The position numbers and the translations under genes are program-made. Of a stretch of DNA of 64,000 bases, positions 31,151 through 64,000 are shown piece after piece. The stretch spans positions 16,497-80,496 of the forward strand of contig JAABTQ010000001.1 of NCBI GenBank assembly GCA_011389745.1, in the 5' to 3' direction. Within the stretch, counting starts at the first letter, position 1, and each line of letters opens with the position of its first letter. This stretch comes from Desulfobacteraceae bacterium (lineage in GTDB: Bacteria > Desulfobacterota > Desulfobacteria > Desulfobacterales > SKZT01). A model generated the notes under the pieces. The model was not told the DNA's origin. It did not search any database and was given only the letters and a program-made list of their open reading frames with translations.

Positions 31151-31226
31151 TCCCCAGTAGCTCAGTCGGTAGAGCAGATGGCTGTTAACCATCGAGTCCG
31201 CGGTTCGAGTCCGTGCTGGGGAGCCA
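31151..31226 (+). tRNA. tRNA-Asn (anticodon GTT), CCA encoded
   Basis: Cloverleaf folded by hand. Acceptor tccccag/ctgggga, D stem gctc/gagc, anticodon stem gatgg/ccatc with loop ctGTTaa, T stem cgcgg/ccgtg with loop ttcgagt, discriminator g, then cca. Confidence 0.95.
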
Positions 31227-35856: not shown

Positions 35857-36831
35857 ATGGAAAATATTATTTCTGGAAAATGGCTGCTTCTGGTTCATCA
35901 GATACCACCCAAACCCGATTCCTTCAGAATGAAAATATGGAGACGCTTACAACAGGTTGGAGCGGTGGCTATCAAACAATCGGTCTATGCCATGCCCTTT
36001 TCCGATCAGTCCCGTGAAGATCTGAGCTGGATTCTCAGGGAAATTATCGAAGGCGGCGGGGATGGTTCAATTATCGAGGCGCGCTTTGTGGAGGGGCTGA
36101 CGGATAAACAGGTTATCAGCCTGTTTCAAAACGCACGCAAGGCGGATTATGAAAAACTCATTCAGGATGCCGGTCTTTTGTTATCGAAGTGGTCCGCAAA
36201 GCATGACAATCCGGAAGAGCCTATGGTAAAAGGGCCGGCTCAACCGGCCAGATTGCAGCGAAGGCTGGATGAAATCGCGGCCATAGATTTTTTTAAGGCC
36301 CCGGAGCGGGGTACTGCTGAAATTCTGGTTAAAGATTTAACAGTACGTTTATCCGATGAACCATCCCTTGAGGCGGTTATTAAGGAAAGAATTGACCATA
36401 TGAAAGGAAAGATCTGGGTCACAAGGGAAAACCTTTTTGTGGACCGCATGGCCTGCGGCTGGCTTATCAGGCGCTTCGTGGACAGTGAGGCAGCTTTTAA
36501 ATTTGTCTCCGGCGCACACTATACGCCGGAAAAAGGGGAGGTCCGGTTTGATATGTTCGATGGAGAATTTACCCATGAAGGAGACCGCTGTACTTTTGAA
36601 GTCATGATTCAACGTTTTCAGCTTCAGGACAAAGCCCTGGTTACCCTGGCCGAAGTGGTACACGATATCGATTTAAAAGATGGCAAATTCGGCCGTGCTG
36701 AAACGGATGGTTTAAACGCCCTTTTGACCGGTCTGACGGCATCCCGGTCTGACGACAACCAGCGCATGGCGGAAGGCGCACAATTGTTTGAAAACCTTTA
36801 CGCATATTTTCAGCGGCACAGGGAAAGCTAA
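35857..36831 (+). CDS. chrB: chromate resistance regulator-like protein ChrB
   Basis: N-terminus WLLLVHQIPPKPDSFRMKIWRRLQQVGAVAIKQSVYAMP is the ChrB-N signature. A ChrB C-domain follows, and chrA lies downstream. Confidence 0.7.
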   Translation: MENIISGKWLLLVHQIPPKPDSFRMKIWRRLQQVGAVAIKQSVYAMPFSDQSREDLSWILREIIEGGGDGSIIEARFVEGLTDKQVISLFQNARKADYEKLIQDAGLLLSKWSAKHDNPEEPMVKGPAQPARLQRRLDEIAAIDFFKAPERGTAEILVKDLTVRLSDEPSLEAVIKERIDHMKGKIWVTRENLFVDRMACGWLIRRFVDSEAAFKFVSGAHYTPEKGEVRFDMFDGEFTHEGDRCTFEVMIQRFQLQDKALVTLAEVVHDIDLKDGKFGRAETDGLNALLTGLTASRSDDNQRMAEGAQLFENLYAYFQRHRES

Positions 36832-38100
36832 ATGAATACATCCAAAAGTATAAAGGCTCGTGCCTCCAGGCTTACCGGTTTTCTTGGACTCCAGCGAAGC
36901 ACTACCGGGCTATTGGCCATGGTGGTACTTTTAGGCATGGGCGAGCGTATGGCCGAGCGTTTCCTTCCCATTTATATGCTGGCCCTGGGCGGCGGTGTGC
37001 TGGCTATCGGTCTTCTGCAGGCCATGGACAATCTGCTGTCGGCACTCTATTCATTTCCCGGGGGTTACCTGTCTGACCGCATCGGTACCAAGAAATCGCT
37101 TTTAATTTTCAACCTGGTGGCCATGGCCGGTTTTGCCCTGGTAATTCTGATCCCCACATGGCAGGCGGTGCTGGCCGGAGCGGTGCTCTTTATTTCCTGG
37201 TCGGCCATCTCCCTGCCTGCCACCATGAGCCTGATTTACAAGGTGCTGCCCCAAAATAAGCGCACTATGGGGGTGACCATGCACTCACTGGTCAGGCGTA
37301 TCCCCATGGCGCTCGGTCCTTTGCTCGGCGGTTTATTTATCAGCCTGTGGGGTGAGCGCGATGGGGTCCGCCTGGCATTTGTCGCGGCCCTGGTCATGGC
37401 GGCAATGGCGCTGATTCTTCAGCAGATGATGATCGAAGACGACCCACGGAACAACAATGTTACATCCGATACCTGTCGTCTCACACCGGAGAAAAACCCG
37501 CTGAAGTTATTCGCATTGATGAATCCGTCCTTGAAAGGGCTGCTCGTGACCGATATTCTTATCCGGTTCTGCGAACAGATTCCCTATGCTTTTGTGGTTG
37601 TCTGGTGCATGAAGACCATTGCCGAACCTGTTTCTGCTATTCAATTCGGCATGCTGACCACTATCGAGATGGCCACGGCTGTGCTTGTGTATATTCCTGT
37701 GGCCTATCTGGCCGACCGCGGCACCAAGAAACCCTTTGTGCTCATGACCTTTGTTTTTTTCACGCTGTTTCCCCTGATGCTTCTCTACAGCCGTTCTCTC
37801 CAGTGGCTGATTGTGGCGTTTATGCTGAGAGGTCTGAAAGAATTCGGCGAGCCCACCCGGAAAGCTCTGATCATGGATTTGTCGCCCGATTCTTGCAAGG
37901 CAGGCATGTTCGGTTTGTACTACCTGATACGGGATGTCTTTGTTTCGGTCGCTGCTCTGGGTGGTGCGTTTTTATGGCAAATCAGCCCGGAAACAAATCT
38001 TGTCACCGCGTTTGTTTTCGGGGTTATCGGTACTGTGGGATTTGCAGTCTTTGGCCGCGAAATACCGGTAGCATCACCATTGCAAAAAGAAAAATCATAA
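36832..38100 (+). CDS. MFS transporter
   Basis: 422 aa, about 12 hydrophobic helices, MFS loop motif GYLSDRIGTKK between TM2 and TM3. Confidence 0.75.
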   Translation: MNTSKSIKARASRLTGFLGLQRSTTGLLAMVVLLGMGERMAERFLPIYMLALGGGVLAIGLLQAMDNLLSALYSFPGGYLSDRIGTKKSLLIFNLVAMAGFALVILIPTWQAVLAGAVLFISWSAISLPATMSLIYKVLPQNKRTMGVTMHSLVRRIPMALGPLLGGLFISLWGERDGVRLAFVAALVMAAMALILQQMMIEDDPRNNNVTSDTCRLTPEKNPLKLFALMNPSLKGLLVTDILIRFCEQIPYAFVVVWCMKTIAEPVSAIQFGMLTTIEMATAVLVYIPVAYLADRGTKKPFVLMTFVFFTLFPLMLLYSRSLQWLIVAFMLRGLKEFGEPTRKALIMDLSPDSCKAGMFGLYYLIRDVFVSVAALGGAFLWQISPETNLVTAFVFGVIGTVGFAVFGREIPVASPLQKEKS

Positions 38101-38153
38101 ATGAATCATTAATAAAACACATCGAAATCGAGCCCAAGGGAGGATGGAACACG

Positions 38154-39467
38154 ATGCGATCCAATTTGAAGCCGGTAATGACCGTGTCATTCAAGCAGGC
38201 TCTGAAATTTTGGACCAAGCTGGGTTTTATCAGTTTCGGAGGCCCTGCCGGCCAGATTGCCATCATGCACCATGAGGTGGTGGAACGACGTAAATGGATC
38301 GGTGAGAACCAATTTCTGCGGGCGCTCAACTTCTGCATGTTGCTACCCGGACCCGAAGCCCAGCAACTGGCCATCTATATCGGTTGGCGGTTGCACGGCA
38401 TATTGGGTGGTATCTCGGCCGGGGCACTTTTTGTTATCCCTTCGATATTTGTCATGCTGCTGTTAAGCTACCTGGCCGTGGCCCATATCGATATCCCGGC
38501 AGTGGCTGCGGCTTTTTACGGCATACAGCCGGTGGTCGTGGCCGTGGTGGTTGAAGCCGTGCTGCGTATCGGCAAAAAAGCGCTCAAATATTATGTGCTG
38601 TATGGATTTGCCGCTTTGGCGTTTGTCTCCATTTTCTTTTTCAAAATCCCGTTTCCCTATATTATTGTCGCAGCCGCCCTTGGAGGGTTATTCATGAGGC
38701 GCCGGCACCCCCATGCTTTTTGCAGGGGCGTTTTTGACCCACAAACCCGGGAATGCCGCATCGAAAAAGATCCAGCCAATAAAAAAAACAACACCCGTCC
38801 ATCTTTAGCCTATGTCGCACGGGTCTTTATTGTCTGTCTTGGCTTGTGGGCTGTTCCGGTTGGGGCATTATGGGCCTGGAATGGTTACCATGGCACACTG
38901 ACACAGATCGGTTTGTTCTTCACCAAGGCCGCTTTTATCACCTTTGGTGGTGCCTACGCCGTGCTCAGCTACATATCCGATGTGGCAGTGACAAGAGGTT
39001 GGCTTGCAATCGAGCAGATGCTCATCGGCCTGGGCCTTGCGGAATCGACCCCGGGTCCGCTGATCATGGTGACACAATATGTCGGTTTTCTCGGAGCCTG
39101 GAATCTGCCCGGAGAACTGAGCCCTCTGACATCGGGAATTATCGGTGCTTTAACCACGACCTATGTCACATTTTTACCCTGCTTTTTCTTTATATTCGCC
39201 GGAGCTCCCTTTATCGAAGCCATGGCCGGTAACCAGCGTCTGCAGGCTGCACTCACCGGTATCACTGCAGCGGTGGTGGGTGTGGTGCTCAACCTGGCGG
39301 TCTGGTTCGGGCACAAAGTTATTTTACCCAGTGGCAGCGTCGATTTTTTTGCCCTGACATCGGCCGTTATCTCGCTGATTCTGCTTTTGAGATTTCATTT
39401 GCCCATCCACTATCTGGTGCCAGTGGGTGCTATGACGGGAGTGATTTGGCAAACAATGATTCCATAA
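38154..39467 (+). CDS. chrA: chromate ion transporter ChrA (duplicated CHR domains)
   Basis: AAGGGAGGA RBS then ATG 38154. FISFGGPAGQIAIMH and a second-half ITFGGAYAVLSY motif. The ORF-track extension back to 37605 overlaps the MFS gene out of frame and is not credible. Confidence 0.85.
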   Translation: MRSNLKPVMTVSFKQALKFWTKLGFISFGGPAGQIAIMHHEVVERRKWIGENQFLRALNFCMLLPGPEAQQLAIYIGWRLHGILGGISAGALFVIPSIFVMLLLSYLAVAHIDIPAVAAAFYGIQPVVVAVVVEAVLRIGKKALKYYVLYGFAALAFVSIFFFKIPFPYIIVAAALGGLFMRRRHPHAFCRGVFDPQTRECRIEKDPANKKNNTRPSLAYVARVFIVCLGLWAVPVGALWAWNGYHGTLTQIGLFFTKAAFITFGGAYAVLSYISDVAVTRGWLAIEQMLIGLGLAESTPGPLIMVTQYVGFLGAWNLPGELSPLTSGIIGALTTTYVTFLPCFFFIFAGAPFIEAMAGNQRLQAALTGITAAVVGVVLNLAVWFGHKVILPSGSVDFFALTSAVISLILLLRFHLPIHYLVPVGAMTGVIWQTMIP

Positions 39468-45774: not shown

Positions 45775-48714
45775 ATGGGTATGACGATGGATTACAAGGA
45801 ATTACTCGAAAAATATAATATACTTTTGGAGGAAGCAGATCGCTTAACAAAAGAAAACATTCAATTGAAAGCACAACTTGGACTATCGAAATCAGAGCTT
45901 TCCCGAAATACTGCCTCTGCAATAAATTCAGAAAAATGTATACCTGACGATAAACCGACAGACAGAAACTGTTTTTCAGATGTGGACAGCCAATCGGATA
46001 CTATCTCCAAGATCGGTCTGTTCAAGTCACTTTTCAAAGGCCGTGATGATGTCTACGCGAAACGATGGGAAAATAAGAATAAGGGGACATCGGGTTATTC
46101 ACCTGTTTGTCTGAATCAGTGGCAAACAGGGATATGCGGCAAACCAAAAATGTCCTGTTCCAAATGCGAACACAAGTTGTATGCCGCTTTGGATAAAGAT
46201 GTCGTTGAGAATCACCTGAGAGGAAATATTGTTGTAGGCATCTATCCAATGCTTCCGGATGAAACGTGCTGTTTTTTGGCAATGGATTTTGACGAAGCAG
46301 ACTGGCAAAATGATATCGCTGTTTTCAGAAATGTTTGCATCGAGTTCAATATTCCTGTTGCTGTCGAACGGTCCCGGTCCGGAAAAGGCGGTCATGTTTG
46401 GTTTTTCTTTGAAAATTGGGTTTCGGCTGCTTTGGCACGCAAATTCGGCACTGCCCTGCTTACCTGTTCCATGAGCAGAAGACATGAAATCCGGTTTAAA
46501 TCATATGACAGGCTGTTTCCCAGTCAGGACACCATGCCCAGAGGTGGTTTAGGAAATTTGATTGCACTGCCCCTGCAAAAAGCGGCAAGAGAAAACGGTA
46601 ACAGCGAATTTACCGATGAAAAATTTCGATCCTATTCTGACCAATGGGCATTCTTGTCCACAATCCAGAAAATATCCGTAAACCGTCTTGAAAATCTCAT
46701 TATGGATCTTTGTCCTGGTCATGAACTGGGAGTTTTAAAAATCGACGAGGAAGAGGAAAAACCCTGGGTATCGAATAAAGAAAAAATCCCACTGCAAAAA
46801 ATTGATTTTCCGAAGCAACTGGACATTGTTAAAGCAAATATGCTTTTTATTCCAAAGGCAATGATTTCCCAAAGGGCGCTGAACAGGTTAAAACGGCTCG
46901 CGTCTTTTAAGAACCCGATGTTTTACAAACAGCAAGCCATGCGTTTACCGACTTATGGGCATTCAAGAGTCGTCTCCTGCGCAGATGAAACCAAAAATTA
47001 CCTGTGTGTGCCAAGAGGATGCGAGTCTGAATTGTCCCATGAACTTGAAGAACTCGGAATTGATATTCGGTTTATTGACAAAACTTATAGCGGGAAATGG
47101 ATTGATGTGGAATTCAACGGACAACTCAGAGATGAACAATCCTTGGCTCTCAGAGCCCTGATGCAGCATGATACCGGAATACTTTCAGGCACAACAGCCT
47201 TTGGTAAAACAATTGTGGCAATTAAGCTGATTGCCGAGAAAAAAGTAAATACCCTGATCCTGGTTGACAAGGTCACACTGCTGTCGCAATGGAAAGAAAA
47301 GCTGTCGGAATTTCTGGTTGTAAATGAACCATTGCCGGAACAGCCTGCTGCCAGAGGCAAGAAAAGGGGACGAAAGAGGGAAATAAGGGTTATCGGTCAA
47401 TTGGGCGCAGGTAAAAATGCGTTAAGCGGTATTGTGGATATTGCCGTAATGCAATCGCTGAGCCGAAAGGGAGAGGTCAAACAATGCGTTAAAAATTACG
47501 GCATGATCATTGCCGATGAATGTCATCATGCTTCAGCATTTACCTATGAACAAATTCTGAAAACCGCCCATGCGAAATATATCTATGGTCTGACCGCCAC
47601 ACCGACAAGGAAAGATGGGCATCATCCGATTCTGTTCATGCATTGCGGTCCCATTCGATATCGGGATAATCCCAAAAAACAAGCGGAGAAGAGACCCTTT
47701 GACCACTATATCGTTCCGCGATTTACCTCTTTAAGGGTTCCTGTGAACAGCGATGAAAATGATCTGTCTATCCAGGATTTATATACCGAAATCATGGATA
47801 ACGACTTCAGGAATCAACAAATTATCGAAGATGTGCTGAAAAATTATCATCAAGGCAGAAACTGCATTGTTCTATCGCTCAGAACCGCCCATGTTGAATT
47901 GCTTGCCAAGAAATTAAAGGAAGAAGTTCCGGATGTCATAACAATGATGGGCGGTATGGGAAAAAAAACAACGCAGGCGGTTTTTCAACACCTCACCGAT
48001 ATTCCTGATGACAAAAATATCATCCTGGTGGCTACCGGTCATTTTATCGGGGAAGGTTTTGACGAGCCACGCCTTGATACGCTGTTTTTAGCCATGCCGA
48101 TATCATGGAAAGGCACGCTGCAGCAATACGCCGGGAGGCTTCACCGGCTGTTCAAAACGAAAAAAGAAGTGCGAATCTATGACTATGTAGATATCCAGGT
48201 AAAGGTGATGGAAAAAATGTATCAAAAACGGTTAAATGGATATGCATCGATGGGATATAAAGCCAAAGGCGAGGAAAACATGAATTCGTCTTTGGATATC
48301 ATTTTTAATAAAGATAATTTTTTACCGATTTTCAATCAGGATATCCTTTCCGCTAAAAAAGAGATTGTCATCGTAAGCCCGTTTGTCAGGAAAAAACGCA
48401 CCCACCAAATGATGCAACACCTGAAAATCCAAACCGCCAAAAATATCCGCGTTATAGCCGTAACCCGGCCTAAAGAGGATTTTACACCGAAAGATCATGC
48501 CGCCTTGCAAAATACGCTGAACCTGCTGACAAGTAACGGAGTAAGTATCGTTTTTAAATCAAATATCCACCAGAAATTTGCAATCATGGATCAAACGGTT
48601 GTGTGGTATGGCAGCATCAATCTTTTAAGCTATGGAGGCGCACAGGAAAGCATCATGCGAATTGAAAGTTCCAATATTGCGAATGAATTAATGAAAAGCA
48701 TGGGAGGTGCATAA
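45775..48714 (+). CDS. fusion protein: coiled-coil + Cys cluster + AEP primase-polymerase + SF2 (DEAH, ResIII-like) helicase + PLD-family (HKD) nuclease
   Basis: AEP motifs LAMDFDEADW (DxD 46285-46293) and RSGKGGHVWFFF (46381-46401). Helicase Walker A GTTAFGKT (47188-47211), DECH (47515-47526), GLTATP and QQYAGRLHR. C-terminal HQKFAIMD...GSINL (HxKxxxxD 48568-48591). The true start may be ATG 45784 or 45790. Confidence 0.8.
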   Translation: MGMTMDYKELLEKYNILLEEADRLTKENIQLKAQLGLSKSELSRNTASAINSEKCIPDDKPTDRNCFSDVDSQSDTISKIGLFKSLFKGRDDVYAKRWENKNKGTSGYSPVCLNQWQTGICGKPKMSCSKCEHKLYAALDKDVVENHLRGNIVVGIYPMLPDETCCFLAMDFDEADWQNDIAVFRNVCIEFNIPVAVERSRSGKGGHVWFFFENWVSAALARKFGTALLTCSMSRRHEIRFKSYDRLFPSQDTMPRGGLGNLIALPLQKAARENGNSEFTDEKFRSYSDQWAFLSTIQKISVNRLENLIMDLCPGHELGVLKIDEEEEKPWVSNKEKIPLQKIDFPKQLDIVKANMLFIPKAMISQRALNRLKRLASFKNPMFYKQQAMRLPTYGHSRVVSCADETKNYLCVPRGCESELSHELEELGIDIRFIDKTYSGKWIDVEFNGQLRDEQSLALRALMQHDTGILSGTTAFGKTIVAIKLIAEKKVNTLILVDKVTLLSQWKEKLSEFLVVNEPLPEQPAARGKKRGRKREIRVIGQLGAGKNALSGIVDIAVMQSLSRKGEVKQCVKNYGMIIADECHHASAFTYEQILKTAHAKYIYGLTATPTRKDGHHPILFMHCGPIRYRDNPKKQAEKRPFDHYIVPRFTSLRVPVNSDENDLSIQDLYTEIMDNDFRNQQIIEDVLKNYHQGRNCIVLSLRTAHVELLAKKLKEEVPDVITMMGGMGKKTTQAVFQHLTDIPDDKNIILVATGHFIGEGFDEPRLDTLFLAMPISWKGTLQQYAGRLHRLFKTKKEVRIYDYVDIQVKVMEKMYQKRLNGYASMGYKAKGEENMNSSLDIIFNKDNFLPIFNQDILSAKKEIVIVSPFVRKKRTHQMMQHLKIQTAKNIRVIAVTRPKEDFTPKDHAALQNTLNLLTSNGVSIVFKSNIHQKFAIMDQTVVWYGSINLLSYGGAQESIMRIESSNIANELMKSMGGA

Positions 48715-55200: not shown

Positions 55201-55277
55201 AGAAATTTTTTCCCGCTAAATTTGATTTTATTTAAGCGAATAGTCAAAGGTTGGGCACCAGGAATTTAAATTGTCAC

Positions 55278-55322
55278 TTGACACAAATGGCAAATTGTTA
55301 TTATATGATAATCATTATCATA
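55278..55322 (+). promoter_or_regulatory. sigma70-like promoter overlapped by a perfect Fur-box palindrome
   Basis: TTGACA at 55278-55283, and a -10-like ttatat about 17 nt downstream. The perfect 19-bp palindrome tatgataatcattatcata (55304-55322) contains the 7-1-7 Fur box TGATAATnATTATCA. Confidence 0.6.
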
Positions 55323-55360
55323 TAGGATATATTGTTAACAAATTATCAGGGTTTATATTT

Positions 55361-55807
55361 ATGGCGGATTTCGAAGAAAGGTTCCATTCGATTGTTGAAA
55401 AGCTCAAGGAGAACAATCATAAGATCACGCCGCAACGTTTGGCTGTAGCAAAAATTCTGGCTCTCAGCAAAGGGCACCCGAGCGTGGAAGAAATTTATGA
55501 GCAGCTTCAGAAAGATTTTCCAACGATGAGTCTGGCGACAGTGTATCGCAATGTCATCTTGATAAAATCGCTGGGGGAGGTGTTGGAATTGGGGTTTCCG
55601 GACGGCAGGAACCGCTATGACGGCAACAAGCCGTATTCACATCCTCACGTTGTATGCGTCAGGTGTAAAAAAATTTTGGATTGGGATTTTTCAAATCTGA
55701 AAGATATGGCCAAAAGAATTACCGATGAAACCGGCTTTAAGATTCTAAGCCACAGACTCGATTTTTTCGGTATATGCCAGGATTGTCTGGGAAAAAATGC
55801 CGTTTAA
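55361..55807 (+). CDS. Fur-family transcriptional regulator (PerR/Fur-like)
   Basis: ITPQRLAVAKIL winged-helix region and a structural Zn site CVRC...CQDC. It sits directly upstream of the catalase. ATG 55361 was chosen over the ORF-track start 55271, which overlaps the operator. Confidence 0.8.
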   Translation: MADFEERFHSIVEKLKENNHKITPQRLAVAKILALSKGHPSVEEIYEQLQKDFPTMSLATVYRNVILIKSLGEVLELGFPDGRNRYDGNKPYSHPHVVCVRCKKILDWDFSNLKDMAKRITDETGFKILSHRLDFFGICQDCLGKNAV

Positions 55808-55841: not shown

Positions 55842-57296
55842 ATGAAAGACAGCGAGCGAAAACCCACCACCAACGACGCCGGGAACCCCGTATCCAGCGA
55901 CGAGTTTTCCCTTACCGTGGGACCCGACGGCCCCATCCTGCTCCAAGACCACTACCTCATGGAGCAGATGGCCAATTTCAACCGGGAGATGATTCCGGAC
56001 CGCCAGCCCCATGCGAAGGGCTCTGGAGCCTTCGGACACTTCGAGGTGACCCGGGACGTCAGCGCCTACACTAAAGCGGTCTTGTTCCAACCGGACACAA
56101 AGACCGAGGTGCTTGCCCGTTTCTCCACGGTGGCCGGCGAGGCCGGCAGCCCCGACACCTGGCGGGACGTGCGCGGCTTTGCGCTCAAGTTCTACACCAC
56201 CGAGGGCAACTACGACATGGTGGGGAACAATACACCGGTGTTTTTCGTGCGCGATCCCATGAAGTTCCAGCACTTCATTCATACGCAGAAGCGCCGGGCA
56301 GACAACGGCCTGCGCGACCACGACATGCAGTGGGATTTCTGGTCTCTGTCTCCCGAAACGGCCCATCAGGTCACCATCCTGATGAGCGATCGTGGCGTCC
56401 CCAAGAGCTATCGGCATATGAACGGCTACACGAGCCATACCTACATGTGGGTCAATGCCAAAGGCGAGCACTTCTGGGTCAAGTACCACTTCAAGACCGA
56501 CCAGGGCATCGATTTCCTCACCCAGGAAGAGGCCGACCGGATTGCCGGCGAGGACGCCGACTACCACCGCCGGGACCTTTCCGATGCGATCAAGCGGGGG
56601 GACTATCCCAGCTGGACGCTCAAAGTGCAGATTATGCCCTTTAAAGAGGCCGAGAACTACCGGTTCAACCCGTTTGATCTGACCAAGGTCTGGCCCCACG
56701 GCGACTACCCGCCGCAGGAGGTCGGGCGGCTCACCCTGAACCGCAATCCAAGCGATTTTCACACCGAGATCGAGCAGGCAGCCTTCGAGCCGAACAGTTT
56801 CGTGCCCGGGATCGGCCCGAGCCCGGACAAGATGCTGCTGGCCCGTCTGCTTTCCTACGCCGATGCCCACCGGGCACGCCTGGGGGTCAACTACAAGCAG
56901 ATCCCGGTCAACCGGCCGAAGAGCCCGGTGCACAGCTACAGCAAGGGTGGTACGATGCGGATGGAAAACGTCTCCGATCCGGTCTACGCGCCCAACTCCA
57001 AGGGCGGCCCGAAGGCCGACCCTGAGCGGTATCCCGAGAATGCCATCTGGAGTGCCGGCGGCGAGTTCACCCGTGCGGCCTATACCAAGCGTAAAGACGA
57101 TGACGACTGGGGGCAGCCGGGCACCCTGGTGCGGGAGGTCATGGATGACTCCCAGCGCGACCGCCTGGTGTCCAACGTGGTCGGGCACCTGAAGAATAGC
57201 GTGTCCGAACCAGTGCTGGAGCGTGCGTTCGAATACTGGAGAAACATCGACGCGGAGATCGGCGATCGCATTGCCAAGAGCGTAAAAGGAGGCTGA
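55842..57296 (+). CDS. monofunctional heme catalase
   Basis: 484 aa. [38 protein letters not shown], and proximal Tyr region [14 protein letters not shown]. Confidence 0.95.
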
Positions 57297-59883: not shown

Positions 59884-59919
59884 CAAAAAAATCTGCTGGG
59901 ATGGGGTCAGAAACTCTAA

Positions 59920-62772
59920 TTAACTTGCCTTGTTTGCCTTGTCCTGTATCTCTCGGACCAATCGGATAAAATGGTTAAGAACGGGGTCTTGGGATTCCTT
60001 TTCGAGCAAGTCAATATGAATTAAGTCATATATATTGAACCAGTCATCTTGAATCGCAATCTGTAGATTTGGATTGATAATGTAGCGGCCTCTTTCAATC
60101 CGGACAAAAAGTTTTCGGTTATAGGGATCTTGACGATTGATTTCGTTTTTAGAAAGAATGGCGGACAGATATGGCCGTTTTTTACGATATTCCGCTATGA
60201 CGTGATTTGGAAAATACTGAAGGGCTGAAAGAAAAGTGGCGGTTTCAAAAGAAGGGGTTTTCCAACGGGTCTCGTTCCGCAAAAGATCTTGCAACTGGGC
60301 AAGCATTGAATTCAACAGAAAAAATTCCATGAGTTTATTGTCGATTTTGATCATTTTCTTTTCCACTTTTACCTTGATGCTGGAAGGTGAAAGATCGGCA
60401 TAAATCCGTCCGATACTATCCCTGGCAAAAAAGTCATATCGATATGCCTGACGCAAAGCGATCTGAAGGGGGGTTCGTCCCCAGTTATCAGTCAGTTTGC
60501 AATTGGCCCCGTTGCCGATAAGCCATTTCACAAGCTCCTCCATGCCTAATTGAGCAGCTATCATCAAGGGTGTTTGATTGAAAGGATTGCGGAAATTCAC
60601 GCCGTAGGTTTCGACTTTTTTCTTGATCTCCGTCAGCTTTTTACCCTGATAATCCAAATGATACTTGTTTTCGATGGAGGCCCTGAATTTTTCAGGATCT
60701 TTTGCGGGATTGAACTTCAATGCTGCCAGGGATTCGAAAAGTTCAGGAACCTGATGCAACACCGCAAAATCAAAAAGGAGTTGCTTGGCTTTACGATTAT
60801 AATGTTTCGGATCAAGGGCCTCTTTTTTCAGCGAATCAATGTTTTGAGGTGTCATGATTTTCCACGGCACCTCTTTTTGGGCTAGTATGGTTCTGCGAAT
60901 TTCTTCAGCCTGTTCGTTTTTACCCTGTAATTCGAGCCGATGAGCTTCCTCTTGCCATTCTCCGGAAGTGGACACCTGAGAAACAACTTTGATATCGCCG
61001 GACCTGGTGGTAAGCCCCATAAGGGAAAACAGGCGGTGGTTCGGGTTGTTTTCGATTATGTAAACATTGGTGATACCCCGTGTAATGGCTACATAAAGGG
61101 CGTTGATAAAAAATTTATAGGCTTCCAGAGATTTGTCTTCCTTGTCTCTAGCCCGGGCGTATTTAAGTTCATGCGTGAGATCTCCGGAGTTGACACCTTC
61201 AATGATGGCATTGAATTCAAGAGTGTGACTTGAAACAAAATTAAGCAAAATAATGTTATCATATTCCAACCCCTTAACTTCATGGATGGCAAACAAAAGC
61301 GGTGTTTTGAAAAATGCGCGCGCCACCTTTTTATCTTCAGAGCGCATAACAATTACCGCTGTTCGGGCGGAACGACCGGTTTTTGAATTAAGCTCCTGCT
61401 TGGTCTTGTCCTTATCTGCCAGAAAATCGATGTCTCCTTTTGTTTCAGAAACACATCGCACCAGATAGTTGCTCTCCCGGTCAATGGATCCAAAACGAGC
61501 GTTTTTGATCAACAGCAAACGATTGGCAAGATCAGTTACGGATAATGAGTTGCGGTAATTGGCGTTTAGAACCCTGATGATTTCTCTGTACCTGTCACCT
61601 CCTTTTTCAGATCCACCTTTGGCACGCTGCTCATAAAACATCGATTTTACGGACGACCAGGAAAAGAAATTGGGATGCACAATCTGGTTGGCATCACCAC
61701 AGAGCACATAATTATTTCTGAATCTCAACATCGTTAGAATCAGCTGGATTTGTATATTTGTAAGATCCTGGACTTCATCAGCCACCACAAAATCATATTT
61801 CGGACGGCACAATCGGACATAATCGTAAGAAACCATGTTAGGTGAATAAAACTTGTTATTTTTTAAAAAATCGAGATATTTTTCAAAAATATCATAAACC
61901 GCCTCACGATCACTGTGTAAAAAAATCGACCTTCGCACACCAAGATTCAGATAGTCAGAGCGACCAAGAATGGCACGATCCACGGGATAGCCTGTCAACA
62001 CCCCGTTAAATTCTTCGTAAAGCTGATGGGTATTTTTAATGGGAGCATGATGCTTATAGCGCTCAAACCACCGTTCAAATTCCATGTAGTTGATTTCACG
62101 GCCTTCAGGTACTCGAATTGTTTCCAAAAGCTCTTTGAAGGAGAGAAAATCGATACTCTGGCGATCATTTTCGTAGTCATTGGAATAATAAAGACTTCGC
62201 GCGTTTTCAGCCAGGTAAGGCGAAAGGGTGACATACAAGATATCGCCTGCCAGGTGTTTCAGTTTTTCCAGGGTAAGCACTGTTTTGCCACTGCCAGCCG
62301 ATCCAATCACAATCAGTGGAGGACTGAGATTGAAAATCTCATGCTGAATATCATCAAATGAGATAATTTTGTCCAAAAGGTGAAAATCGGATCGCTCCGG
62401 ATTCCTGTAAACCAAAGGGGTTAGATCCCCAGTGGGTATTTGTGCGGTAGAAAAATTAAAATCAATCTTGTCTTCATCGATTTGGGCACCTCTAAGAAAC
62501 CGTGATTTTTCATAAGCATGATTTTTGATTATTTCCAACAAAAGGATGCAGCAGGACTCATTATAGCGTCCAAGGGTAAAAAGCAGACGATCCCTGCTGC
62601 TAAGTTTTGCTCTGTAATAACGGGTGCCTTTAAGTTTTTTTACATCAGCGGCACTGAAGTCGCCGGCTTGAAGCAGGCCCACAACCTTATCCAACTGTTT
62701 TGAAAGTCCCTTGGGATCCATTTCATTATATCTAAGAATTTCCATTAAATTTGTCATTTCTTTATTTTCCAA
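59920..62772 (-). CDS. SF1 (UvrD/AAA_30-like) helicase with RelE/ParE-like N-terminal domain and C-terminal ankyrin repeats
   Basis: N-terminus VKKLKGTRYYRAKLSSRDRLLFTL...CILLLEIIKNHAYEK. Walker A GSAGSGKT (62281-62304), Walker B FVVADEVQDL, LCGDANQ, NYRNS, HEVKGLEYDNIILL and LYVAITRG. Ankyrin-type repeats ...TPLMIAAQLGMEELVKWLIGNGANCKLTDNWGRTPLQIAL. Confidence 0.75.
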   Translation of the reverse strand: MENKEMTNLMEILRYNEMDPKGLSKQLDKVVGLLQAGDFSAADVKKLKGTRYYRAKLSSRDRLLFTLGRYNESCCILLLEIIKNHAYEKSRFLRGAQIDEDKIDFNFSTAQIPTGDLTPLVYRNPERSDFHLLDKIISFDDIQHEIFNLSPPLIVIGSAGSGKTVLTLEKLKHLAGDILYVTLSPYLAENARSLYYSNDYENDRQSIDFLSFKELLETIRVPEGREINYMEFERWFERYKHHAPIKNTHQLYEEFNGVLTGYPVDRAILGRSDYLNLGVRRSIFLHSDREAVYDIFEKYLDFLKNNKFYSPNMVSYDYVRLCRPKYDFVVADEVQDLTNIQIQLILTMLRFRNNYVLCGDANQIVHPNFFSWSSVKSMFYEQRAKGGSEKGGDRYREIIRVLNANYRNSLSVTDLANRLLLIKNARFGSIDRESNYLVRCVSETKGDIDFLADKDKTKQELNSKTGRSARTAVIVMRSEDKKVARAFFKTPLLFAIHEVKGLEYDNIILLNFVSSHTLEFNAIIEGVNSGDLTHELKYARARDKEDKSLEAYKFFINALYVAITRGITNVYIIENNPNHRLFSLMGLTTRSGDIKVVSQVSTSGEWQEEAHRLELQGKNEQAEEIRRTILAQKEVPWKIMTPQNIDSLKKEALDPKHYNRKAKQLLFDFAVLHQVPELFESLAALKFNPAKDPEKFRASIENKYHLDYQGKKLTEIKKKVETYGVNFRNPFNQTPLMIAAQLGMEELVKWLIGNGANCKLTDNWGRTPLQIALRQAYRYDFFARDSIGRIYADLSPSSIKVKVEKKMIKIDNKLMEFFLLNSMLAQLQDLLRNETRWKTPSFETATFLSALQYFPNHVIAEYRKKRPYLSAILSKNEINRQDPYNRKLFVRIERGRYIINPNLQIAIQDDWFNIYDLIHIDLLEKESQDPVLNHFIRLVREIQDKANKAS

Positions 62773-62794
62773 CTATCGATTCAGCTTAAAAATA

Positions 62795-64000
62795 TTACTT
62801 ATGTAGTGCCTGGATGAAAGCCAAAGCGTCCTGTTTATTCCTAAACATTCCGGAATCCTGTGCCTCTCTTGTTTTTTTTAAAATTTTTCCCATGTCCGGA
62901 CCCGGTAACACGCCCAAATTGATAAGATCCTCTCCATTAATCCAATTCTTTCTTTCAATCTGTTTTTTGATGGAAATGAAATATTCGGCGATAATTTTCC
63001 TGCACCAGTCCAGGTGTGCTTTTTTTTCTGATTCTATTGCCGATGGACCCATTTTGCTTTGGGTGTCCGCCATGCTTAAAATGATCGACATGATGGCATC
63101 ATCTCCCAAATTCCTAAAAAAACGAATGATAGTGCTTTTTTTAACCCCAATTTCAGAAAGGTTAACTACATGGAGATGTTCGGCCGCGAGCATTTCAAGA
63201 AACATCCGGCTTCTTTTGGACATCTTCAGTCGAACAGCCATATCGGATAACATAGCCTTTCCTTTGGCATCGTGACCGTAAAAACTAATCCGGCCCGATT
63301 CAGGTTTGATCTTCCGGGTGTGCGGCTTTCCGATATCGTGAAAAAGTCCGGCCATTTTTAATAGCGGAAGTCGGTCGTTTTTCCCGAGACAATCTAATAC
63401 AAAACAACTTTGATCACCAAAATAACTTTCAGGAACATTTAAAATGGTTTCACAGTTTTCCAATACACTCATGCTATGATTCCAAACATCCTGGTGATGG
63501 AATGAGTTCTGGGAGCAGGTTTTCATGGGTTGAATCTCTGGAAAAACAACCTCCAAAAGACCCAGTCGATCCATTTTTCGAATATAGGGAGTAGAGTTCG
63601 ATACAGAGAAAATTCGGATCATCTCGGACATAATCCTTTCAGTCGCTGATTCTTTAAGCCTGAAAGTTTGTTTACTAATAGAAACCGCCGTATCATGTTC
63701 AATAGTAAATTTCAATTCCGCCGAAAACCTGATTGCCCGAAGCATCCTCAACGGATCATCTTTAATGGCATGATCCGAACATAACCTGATTAACCGCTGC
63801 TCCAGATCATTTTGCCCACCCAATGGGTCGATCAGGGTCGTTGAAACACCTTTTGGGGTGATTTCCATAGCAATAGCATTGATACTGAAGTCACGACATT
63901 TGAGATCTTCATTGATATTGTCTCCCCGCATTTCTGAGAGGTCTATGACAAAGTCTTTGTTATCCCGATCAATTATCCGATAGCATGGCTCATCAGCTTT
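62795..64000 (-). CDS. CCA-adding enzyme / poly(A) polymerase-family nucleotidyltransferase with HD domain (5' end beyond window)
   Basis: RDFSINAIA head-domain motif, RAIRF and HD motif LFHDIGKP. The frame stays open upstream of the first Met to position 64000. Confidence 0.75.
   Translation of the reverse strand, partial: KADEPCYRIIDRDNKDFVIDLSEMRGDNINEDLKCRDFSINAIAMEITPKGVSTTLIDPLGGQNDLEQRLIRLCSDHAIKDDPLRMLRAIRFSAELKFTIEHDTAVSISKQTFRLKESATERIMSEMIRIFSVSNSTPYIRKMDRLGLLEVVFPEIQPMKTCSQNSFHHQDVWNHSMSVLENCETILNVPESYFGDQSCFVLDCLGKNDRLPLLKMAGLFHDIGKPHTRKIKPESGRISFYGHDAKGKAMLSDMAVRLKMSKRSRMFLEMLAAEHLHVVNLSEIGVKKSTIIRFFRNLGDDAIMSIILSMADTQSKMGPSAIESEKKAHLDWCRKIIAEYFISIKKQIERKNWINGEDLINLGVLPGPDMGKILKKTREAQDSGMFRNKQDALAFIQALHK

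Follow-up and report, generated by a model that had tools for sequence, protein, structure and literature searches.

A solitary, mobile family of SF1 helicases with a predicted RelE/ParE-fold head and ankyrin repeats, seen from a Desulfobacteraceae genome

Fusions between a RelE-fold domain and a superfamily 1 (SF1) helicase have been recognised only recently, in multi-gene defence systems. One of them is ArmD, in which a RelE-like domain is joined to a UvrD helicase of the GajB-like kind, and without which ARMADA type II gives no defence against phages (PMC12458937; bioRxiv 10.1101/2025.09.15.676423). It is almost always encoded by the fourth and last gene of an armABCD operon, in which armA codes for a Snf2/BrxHII-like protein, armB for a PglX-like methyltransferase and armC for a YprA-like helicase; in the tested E. 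coli cluster, each of the four gene deletions abolished protection, as did the ArmD Walker A mutation K266A, and the Walker B mutation D454N reduced it (PMC12458937). The other, CnuH from CoCoNuT systems of types II and III-A, is a UPF1-like helicase with a RelE/colicin D-like ‘RNase toxin-like’ domain, which was detected by structure prediction only and has no sequence similarity to characterised toxins (PMC11090510). Here, we describe a gene on the minus strand of a 64,000-nucleotide stretch from a Desulfobacteraceae bacterium (assembly GCA_011389745.1, contig JAABTQ010000001.1, positions 16,497 to 80,496; referred to below as the window), whose product is composed of a predicted RelE/ParE-fold head, a conserved linker, an SF1A helicase core, a helical region, ankyrin repeats and a C-terminal alpha/beta domain. 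The family to which it belongs is a distinct solitary branch of the RelE-like/SF1-helicase design, with ankyrins and an extra C-terminal domain, and we found no description in the literature of the RelE-like/helicase/ankyrin architecture or of its Shigella gene.

The gene was recognised in the open reading frame (ORF) list of the window as an uninterrupted minus-strand ORF of 950 codons (59920..62772, with the stop codon at 59920-59922), as also reported in a first-pass annotation made from the sequence. In the family alignment, all aligned homologues start at ORF residue ten (‘MEILRYNEMD’, window position 62745), with the pattern ‘M-x-[IV]-L-x-Y’, and the product of the gene (59920..62745, minus strand) therefore probably has 941 amino acids (aa) and a mass of ~105 kDa. 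Other possible starts are ATG 62757 and TTG 62772, and an identical database protein is annotated with 945 aa. Domain limits are given below in the 941-aa numbering unless the 950-aa numbering is stated, and all domains are encoded on the minus strand.

The N-terminal domain, or head (residues 1-88; 62482..62745), was delimited by AlphaFold2 modelling, Foldseek searches and residue conservation. Its AlphaFold2 model, based on a 131-residue alignment (predicted local distance difference test, pLDDT, 81; predicted template modelling score, pTM, 0.78), has a strand-helix-strand-strand-strand order, and 24 of the 26 top Foldseek matches in the PDB are YoeB, RelK, YafQ, HP0892/HP0894, HigB or HigB2, with ParE lower down. 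The best of these matches has an E value of 4.9e-4, with template modelling scores, by target length, of 0.60-0.68 and root-mean-square deviations of 2.4-3.7 Å. The structure of Cami1 (8phj) is also among the fold matches, weakly (E 0.36), and in the viral library BFVD the best match, again weak (E ~1e-2), is a ParE-like toxin domain, with none at E <=1e-3. Sequence profiles, in contrast, gave no significant match: the first 137 aa, scanned alone, matched no Pfam family, Pfam ParE_like (PF24732) was touched by only 3 of 41 family members at E 0.05 or worse, and a PDB-sequence search with a profile of 41 homologues retrieved no toxin by the N-terminal domain. Comparison of the head by hhalign with E. 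coli RelE, whose sequence was confirmed to be identical to that in PDB 4V7K, was insignificant (probability 0.2%), as were comparisons with a YoeB homologue and with a YoeB family profile (probability <=10%), the last of which had little power because the sequences in the YoeB alignment were all 83-96% identical. The short segment aligned by hhalign is the strand 2-strand 3 hairpin, which places ‘YYRAKLSSRDRLLF’ of the head on ‘YWSRRIDETNRLVY’ of YoeB.

Across 203 family members (42-100% identity), no substitution occurs at K37, R45, R53, E71, H76, Y78, S81 or F83, the first seven of these being invariant in 202/202 sequences. At position 47, all members have K or R with the exception of a single E, and position 82 is occupied by either R or K. 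R45 and K47 lie on strand 2, R53 opens strand 3, and H76, Y78 and R82 are found directly past strand 4. We take the catalytic positions to be K52/K54, R61 and R81/Y87 in RelE and R65 and H83/Y84 in YoeB, and we infer that the invariant residues of the modelled head occupy the corresponding active-site positions. A profile of the N-terminal domain finds 756 representatives of 50%-identity clusters, in which the domain is always N-terminal; short matches run into the helicase linker and resemble truncated gene calls. We accept the head as a member of the RelE/ParE superfamily at the level of predicted fold, with the caveat that the fold comes from a model. The RelE/ParE likeness proposed in the first-pass annotation for the first ~95 aa is recovered by modelling and structure search of the N-terminal region, which lead to RelE/ParE toxins, and not by sequence methods.

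The head is followed by a conserved linker (residues 89-140; 62326..62481), apparent from the conservation map and modelled with lower pLDDT (51-81), which ends just ahead of Walker A in ‘LDKIxSFDDxQ’, a stretch that we read as the Q-motif region. Next comes an SF1A (UvrD/PcrA/Rep-like) helicase core (residues 141-580; 61006..62325), assigned from motifs, Pfam and Foldseek. The set of SF1 motifs listed earlier (GSAGSGKT, DEVQD, GDANQ, NYRNS, KGLEYD and YVAITRG) is entirely present in the translation, and GSAGSGKT (Walker A), DEVQD (Walker B), GDANQ, NYRN, KGLEY and YVAxTR fall on invariant columns in an alignment of 43 homologues. In Pfam, the core exceeds the gathering scores of three families, UvrD-helicase (33 bits; cut-off 23), AAA_19 (29 bits; cut-off 25) and PhoH, whereas its matches to UvrD_C and UvrD_C_2 stay below them. 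The full-length AlphaFold2 model (pLDDT 83.7, pTM 0.84) is closest in the PDB to PcrA, UvrD and Rep (Foldseek E 1e-12 to 1e-9), followed by HelD, Upf1-like helicases and nsp13. A PDB sequence search with the core only was nearly empty, with barely any solved helicase matched, and because its sequence similarity to solved helicases is so low the core represents a divergent branch. The motor is an intact, divergent SF1A UvrD-like helicase.

The C-terminal part of the protein begins with a helical region (residues 581-704; 60634..61005), defined by AlphaFold2 and conservation, which is modelled entirely as helices with pLDDT mostly >80, contains the conserved stretch ‘EW..EA..LELQGK.EQAE.IR’ and has no family match. 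It leads into the ankyrin repeats (residues 705-785; 60391..60633), approximately two canonical repeats plus flanking helices, which are supported by Pfam and modelled by AlphaFold2 as helix pairs. The first reading, of at least two repeats near 60440-60600, agrees with Pfam matches above gathering at 60448-60606 (residues 723-775 in 950-aa numbering), namely Ank_2 (38.4 bits, cut-off 27.3; 1.9e-9), Ank_4, Ank_5 and Ank, with a match to Ank_3 as well, and the full-profile PDB search was swamped by ankyrins and DARPins. The protein ends in an alpha/beta domain (residues 786-941; 59923..60390), recognised by a pLDDT of mostly 85-92 and by invariant residues, which is composed of two beta-hairpins and helices, carries the motif ‘YRKKRxY..S.L.KNE...LF.R..RG.Y..NP’ and has no match in Pfam or PDB sequences. 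It might, at a guess, be a winged-helix-like nucleic-acid-binding module, an assumption of ours that is based on the predicted secondary structure and on a motif. Some members of the family are longer: a sub-branch of ~1,340-1,420 aa (P0088, P0092, P0093, P0096, P0101-P0103 and others) has a C-terminal extension of DUF1186 and SEC-C motifs, the latter being zinc-binding tails known from SecA, and one representative (P0448) reaches 1,580 aa.

Among the known systems, ArmD has the same domain order, in which a RelE-like domain at the N-terminus precedes a UvrD/GajB-like SF1 helicase. The sequence of ArmD (WP_000218177.1) was recovered from an O157:H7 genome via a published primer sequence, and the N-terminal half of its helicase is related to the window family (BLASTP E 1e-5, 22% identity; hhalign probability 95.9%). 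Both heads show, by eye, a similar ‘R...R...H..AY’ pattern, and hhalign gave no significant alignment between them. ArmD differs from the window protein in its length of 704 aa and in lacking the helical/ankyrin/C-terminal module; the Walker A lysine is K266 in ArmD and K154 in the window protein, and Pfam UvrD-helicase is matched with 85 bits by ArmD versus 33 bits. Furthermore, ArmD is part of the armABCD operon, whereas the window family is solitary. Because it lacks this setting, the window protein is not ArmD, and we reject an identity with ArmD/ARMADA: no neighbour is conserved beside the homologues in 80 loci analysed with 6-kb flanks, on which all neighbour counts given here are based, and the window gene itself has a nucleotidyltransferase (NTase) gene upstream and a DUF523/DUF1722 gene downstream. 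CnuH is likewise an SF1 helicase with a RelE-like domain recognised through structure alone, but it is a UPF1-like (SF1B) enzyme that contains inserted OB-fold and coiled-coil segments and is encoded with McrBC-type CnuB/C partners, whereas the window core is nearest to PcrA/UvrD/Rep and has no partner.

The head shares its predicted fold and strand order with RelE, YoeB, YafQ, HigB and ParE, as well as the conserved basic, His and Tyr residues at equivalent secondary-structure positions. These toxins are, however, free proteins of ~90 aa with an antitoxin gene, whereas the window head is fused, antitoxin-less and has no significant profile match. GajB of the Gabija system is also a UvrD-like SF1 motor serving immunity, and GajB profiles are the best matches of the window protein in the PADLOC defence library, but these matches are weak (E 3.6e-9) and partial (~100 residues); the remaining matches, at E up to 1, are only C3a187, RTasHel and PDC-M72A. 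As no GajA-type family is among the neighbour families listed, in addition to the partial match, we reject the gene as a GajB. Nhi and type II Mokosh are single-protein nuclease-helicase defences, in which one polypeptide joins a helicase and a nuclease. The window protein resembles these in concept, and its PADLOC scan at E up to 1 contained no Nhi model; its effector fold is RelE-like, as opposed to PD-(D/E)xK or PLD in the GajB/Nhi/Mokosh group. Cami1, a CARF-RelE protein that binds the ribosome, similarly holds a RelE-fold domain within a larger regulated protein, but is controlled by a CARF domain that binds cyclic oligoadenylates, belongs to type III CRISPR and has no helicase. The resemblance to anti-phage helicase proteins suggested at first pass finds direct precedents in ArmD (PMC12458937) and CnuH (PMC11090510).

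The family is large. A protein search returned 4,504 relatives at E <=1e-5, the best 120 of which are 928-1423 aa long, with query coverage of >=97% and identities of 52-100%; across phyla, identity is 42-60% over >900 aa, and all domains are conserved along the entire protein in thousands of homologues. A scan with one genome per species yielded at least 479 loci, distributed over the PVC group, Bacteroidota, many Gammaproteobacteria, Nitrospirae, Desulfovibrionales, Chloroflexota and further groups, the nearest relatives outside the Desulfobacterales-type clade being those of the PVC group (~60% identity). By tblastn, full-length homologues with 42-44% identity are present on 139 plasmids, the hosts of which include Shigella (101), Escherichia (13), Piscirickettsia salmonis (10), Methylosinus (pOB3b2) and others. 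On the Shigella dysenteriae plasmid NZ_CP024469.1 (147591-150503; L086), one of the Shigella/EIEC virulence-type plasmids that carry a full-length copy, the homologue lies in a pINV virulence-plasmid context and adjoins capU, virK, lpxM and a polysaccharide deacetylase gene, which we presume to be shf, with ospG and ipaH9.8 nearby; plasmids with homologues also bear toxin-antitoxin (TA) modules such as ccdAB, as seen in the Shigella record examined. Of 5,426 complete E. coli genomes, 115 (~2%) carry the E. coli/Shigella version, at 116 places of which 106 are chromosomal. The two chromosomal loci examined (L088/L089) belong to an island rich in insertion sequence elements, where Ag43, a YeeP-like GTPase and Afa/Dr adhesins are also encoded. 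The E. coli homologue is preceded, 94 bp upstream, by a hypothetical ORF of 177 aa without a Pfam match. The E. coli/Shigella homologues are annotated merely as ‘UvrD-helicase domain-containing’, ‘hypothetical’ or ‘Ankyrin repeat protein’.

Close relatives differ in whether they have the helicase gene at one and the same syntenic site. Around the window gene, neither flanking repeats nor a GC content different from that of the adjacent genes point to a cassette. We regard the family as accessory and horizontally mobile. The first-pass annotation had considered that homologues could prove uniformly housekeeping; they are instead patchy in distribution, borne on plasmids and islands and present or absent at a single locus. 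An origin in phages is rejected, given that the 50,697 phage genomes of INPHARED contain no family match and the 2.9 million contigs of IMG/VR only two members.

The helicase is also solitary, without a conserved partner gene. In all-against-all clustering, no family of flanking ORFs occurs in more than 4 of the 80 loci; the 121 immediate neighbour proteins gave 125 Pfam families, none of them in more than 3 loci, and no conserved ORF of 30-120 aa was found within 700 bp on either side. As a one-off neighbour, a YefM-like/YoeB TA pair lies directly downstream of the homologue in an uncultured Nitrosomonas sp. (L031, 4572-5101), and its YoeB is the homologue that was used in the hhalign comparison described above.

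In our view, there is about an even chance that the protein is a solitary, mobile, conflict-type enzyme, in which an ATP-driven helicase carries a RelE-like RNase or RNA-binding head. In the proposed model, the protein would act alone, in defence or in an addiction-like manner, and a cue, whether nucleic acid or protein, would be sensed by its ankyrin/C-terminal module and helicase or serve as their loading site. Translocation driven by ATP would then position or unmask the RelE-like head, which would bind and probably cleave RNA, in the manner of RelE and YoeB on the ribosome or else by acting on transcripts directly. Because no antitoxin gene is present, the head would have to be restrained within the same polypeptide, with autoinhibition in cis standing in for the antitoxin, and the adjacent NTase would be an ordinary CCA-adding enzyme without a role. 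More tentatively, the gene may be a complete immune or abortive-infection system, in which the motor and an ankyrin/C-terminal sensor gate a RelE-like endoribonuclease and translation would be shut down, at the ribosomal A site or on transcripts, upon the appearance of foreign nucleic acid or protein. More radically, the protein could do in bacteria what Upf1-type mRNA surveillance does elsewhere, with the head probing stalled ribosomes and the helicase stripping the message.

A defence-type reading of the family is plausible and has precedents in ArmD and CnuH. Several observations count against the conflict-type model: the similarity of the head to RelE, YoeB or ParE is insignificant at the sequence level in hhalign, Pfam and the PDB profile search; the active-site correspondence was drawn from secondary-structure position; PADLOC 2.0 offers no model beyond the weak and partial GajB-type helicase matches; flanking genes are mostly metabolic enzymes, regulators or housekeeping genes, with few matches to defence models; the family is absent from INPHARED and nearly so from IMG/VR; and its sequences are conserved to a degree that is unusual for a gene in an arms race, a feature equally compatible with a conserved cellular target and with a role outside defence.

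These points lead to the alternative that survives best, which we regard as doubtful but worth keeping in sight, namely that the head is catalytically dead and is used only to dock or to bind nucleic acid, with the ribosome, RNA or, as for ParE, gyrase as conceivable targets. On this reading, we would be dealing with a nucleic-acid-remodelling helicase that has a maintenance role, for example in RNA or ribosome quality control or in plasmid or island upkeep, and no immune effector. Very strong full-length conservation across phyla and the mostly housekeeping or metabolic flanks speak for such a role, whereas a patchy distribution that includes plasmids and islands, and presence or absence at the same locus among close relatives, speak against it. 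Similarly, the absence of an antitoxin and of any significant sequence match to active RelE-family toxins is to be set against the invariant basic, His and Tyr residues located where the catalytic residues of RelE and YoeB lie. In the Desulfobacterales-type clade, the gene follows the tRNA-related aspS-gatA-gatB(-cca), and HelD, one of the structural matches, is UvrD-like and uses an N-terminal probe domain to recycle RNA polymerase that has stalled, both of which would fit a maintenance helicase; the characterised relatives of the same architecture, ArmD and CnuH, sit in defence systems.

It is very improbable that the protein is an enlarged classical type II TA toxin with a separately encoded antitoxin. 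The fold of the head and the plasmid copies that travel with TA modules such as ccdAB would agree with this, but no conserved small ORF flanks the gene in the 80 loci, the upstream gap in the window is just 22-49 bp, and the head profile is found only N-terminally within the family, where short matches look like truncated gene calls.

The upstream gap separates the helicase gene from that of a class-II CCA-adding/poly(A)-polymerase-family NTase with an HD domain (62795..64000, minus strand), which is cut by the window end so that the last 401 of 468 codons are included. As stated in the first-pass annotation, this is a CCA/poly(A)-polymerase-type NTase-HD gene: Pfam and NCBIfam searches identified PolyA_pol, PolyA_pol_RNAbd and HD, and the best NCBIfam model is tRNA_CCA_actino, with a score short of equivalog level (180 bits, cut-off 439). 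The spacing of 22 bp given there is obtained when the earliest possible helicase start, TTG 62772, is assumed; between the NTase stop and the conserved start there are 49 bp, and no terminator-like site was found between the two genes. The NTase had also been suggested as a possible dedicated partner of the helicase, a suggestion that the comparison of loci does not bear out. In tblastn, the NTase matched none of the 80 helicase loci, the sole exception being the contig of the organism described here, and the adjacency is hence not conserved (0 of 80 other loci within 6 kb). Orthologues of the NTase with 82% and 69% identity are part of an aspS-gatA-gatB-cca / EVE / DUF523/DUF1722 block without a helicase, and in a further relative (L093; NTase identity 71%) the helicase lies ~670 bp downstream of cca. 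The 83%-identical helicase (P0009) comes after gatB with no cca between, and helicase homologues at 61% (P0014, P0013) have other neighbours. The identity of NTase homologues falls smoothly across Desulfobacterales-type genomes, several of them being named CCA tRNA nucleotidyltransferase, and no second cca copy exists within the window. Because the aspS-gatA-gatB-cca block occurs with or without the helicase, the NTase is most likely the housekeeping Cca and an incidental neighbour, and the helicase is best read as a variable insertion beside cca. A dedicated two-gene system, in which the NTase would for example tag or repair RNA ends that the helicase produces or binds, is scarcely credible despite the shared strand, the short terminator-free gap and the NTase-then-helicase order, which one or more relatives share with this organism, and we reject it in view of the 80 loci without an NTase, the gatB-adjacent homologue and the helicase-free blocks of cca orthologues.

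Downstream, the helicase gene is followed by a convergent DUF523/DUF1722 gene, and only 36 bp (59884-59919) separate the two stops. In relatives (L091, L092, L093 and L083), a gene for an EVE-domain protein is located between cca or the helicase gene and DUF523/DUF1722, and this gene is absent from the window; together with the variable presence of the helicase, this implies that the locus has undergone at least two independent gains or losses.

Elsewhere in the window, ~11 kb from the helicase gene, a 979-aa conflict-system protein is encoded (45775-48714, plus strand), which combines a TOTE-conflict-system archaeo-eukaryotic primase domain (PF22548, E 8e-101) with a ResIII/DEAD helicase and, at the C-terminus, a nuclease domain of the PLD type. 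A catalase gene (55842-57296, plus strand) adjoins the gene for a Fur/PerR-type regulator (55271-55807), and the same catalase-Fur pair is found in the relative L091. Its GC content of ~0.60, compared with ~0.41 around it, suggests that the catalase gene was acquired from a higher-GC donor. A chromate-resistance cluster (35857-39467, plus strand), coding for ChrB, an MFS transporter and a ChrA-type chromate transporter, forms a stretch with a GC content of ~0.50 and might be a tRNA-associated island, the only tRNA gene of the window, tRNA-Asn (31151-31226), being situated upstream of it.

For annotation, the comparison corrects the suggestion of an NTase partner and brings entries named ‘hypothetical’, ‘AAA family ATPase’ and ‘ankyrin repeat protein’ together as one coherent architecture. 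The family comprises hundreds of sequence clusters from many phyla, with strictly invariant candidate active-site residues, and presents in one gene the domain pairing that is otherwise embedded in multi-gene defence systems, thus offering a simpler test case. Natural copies that are tractable include the E. coli island gene WP_000686652.1, present for instance in strain uk_P46212 (NZ_CP013658.1, 3224992-3227841), and the Shigella pINV gene WP_023636847.1, and with these the question of whether such heads are ATP-gated RNases becomes directly testable. Were the immune reading true, Shigella virulence plasmids and islands of E. coli would carry a defence gene that has so far been overlooked.

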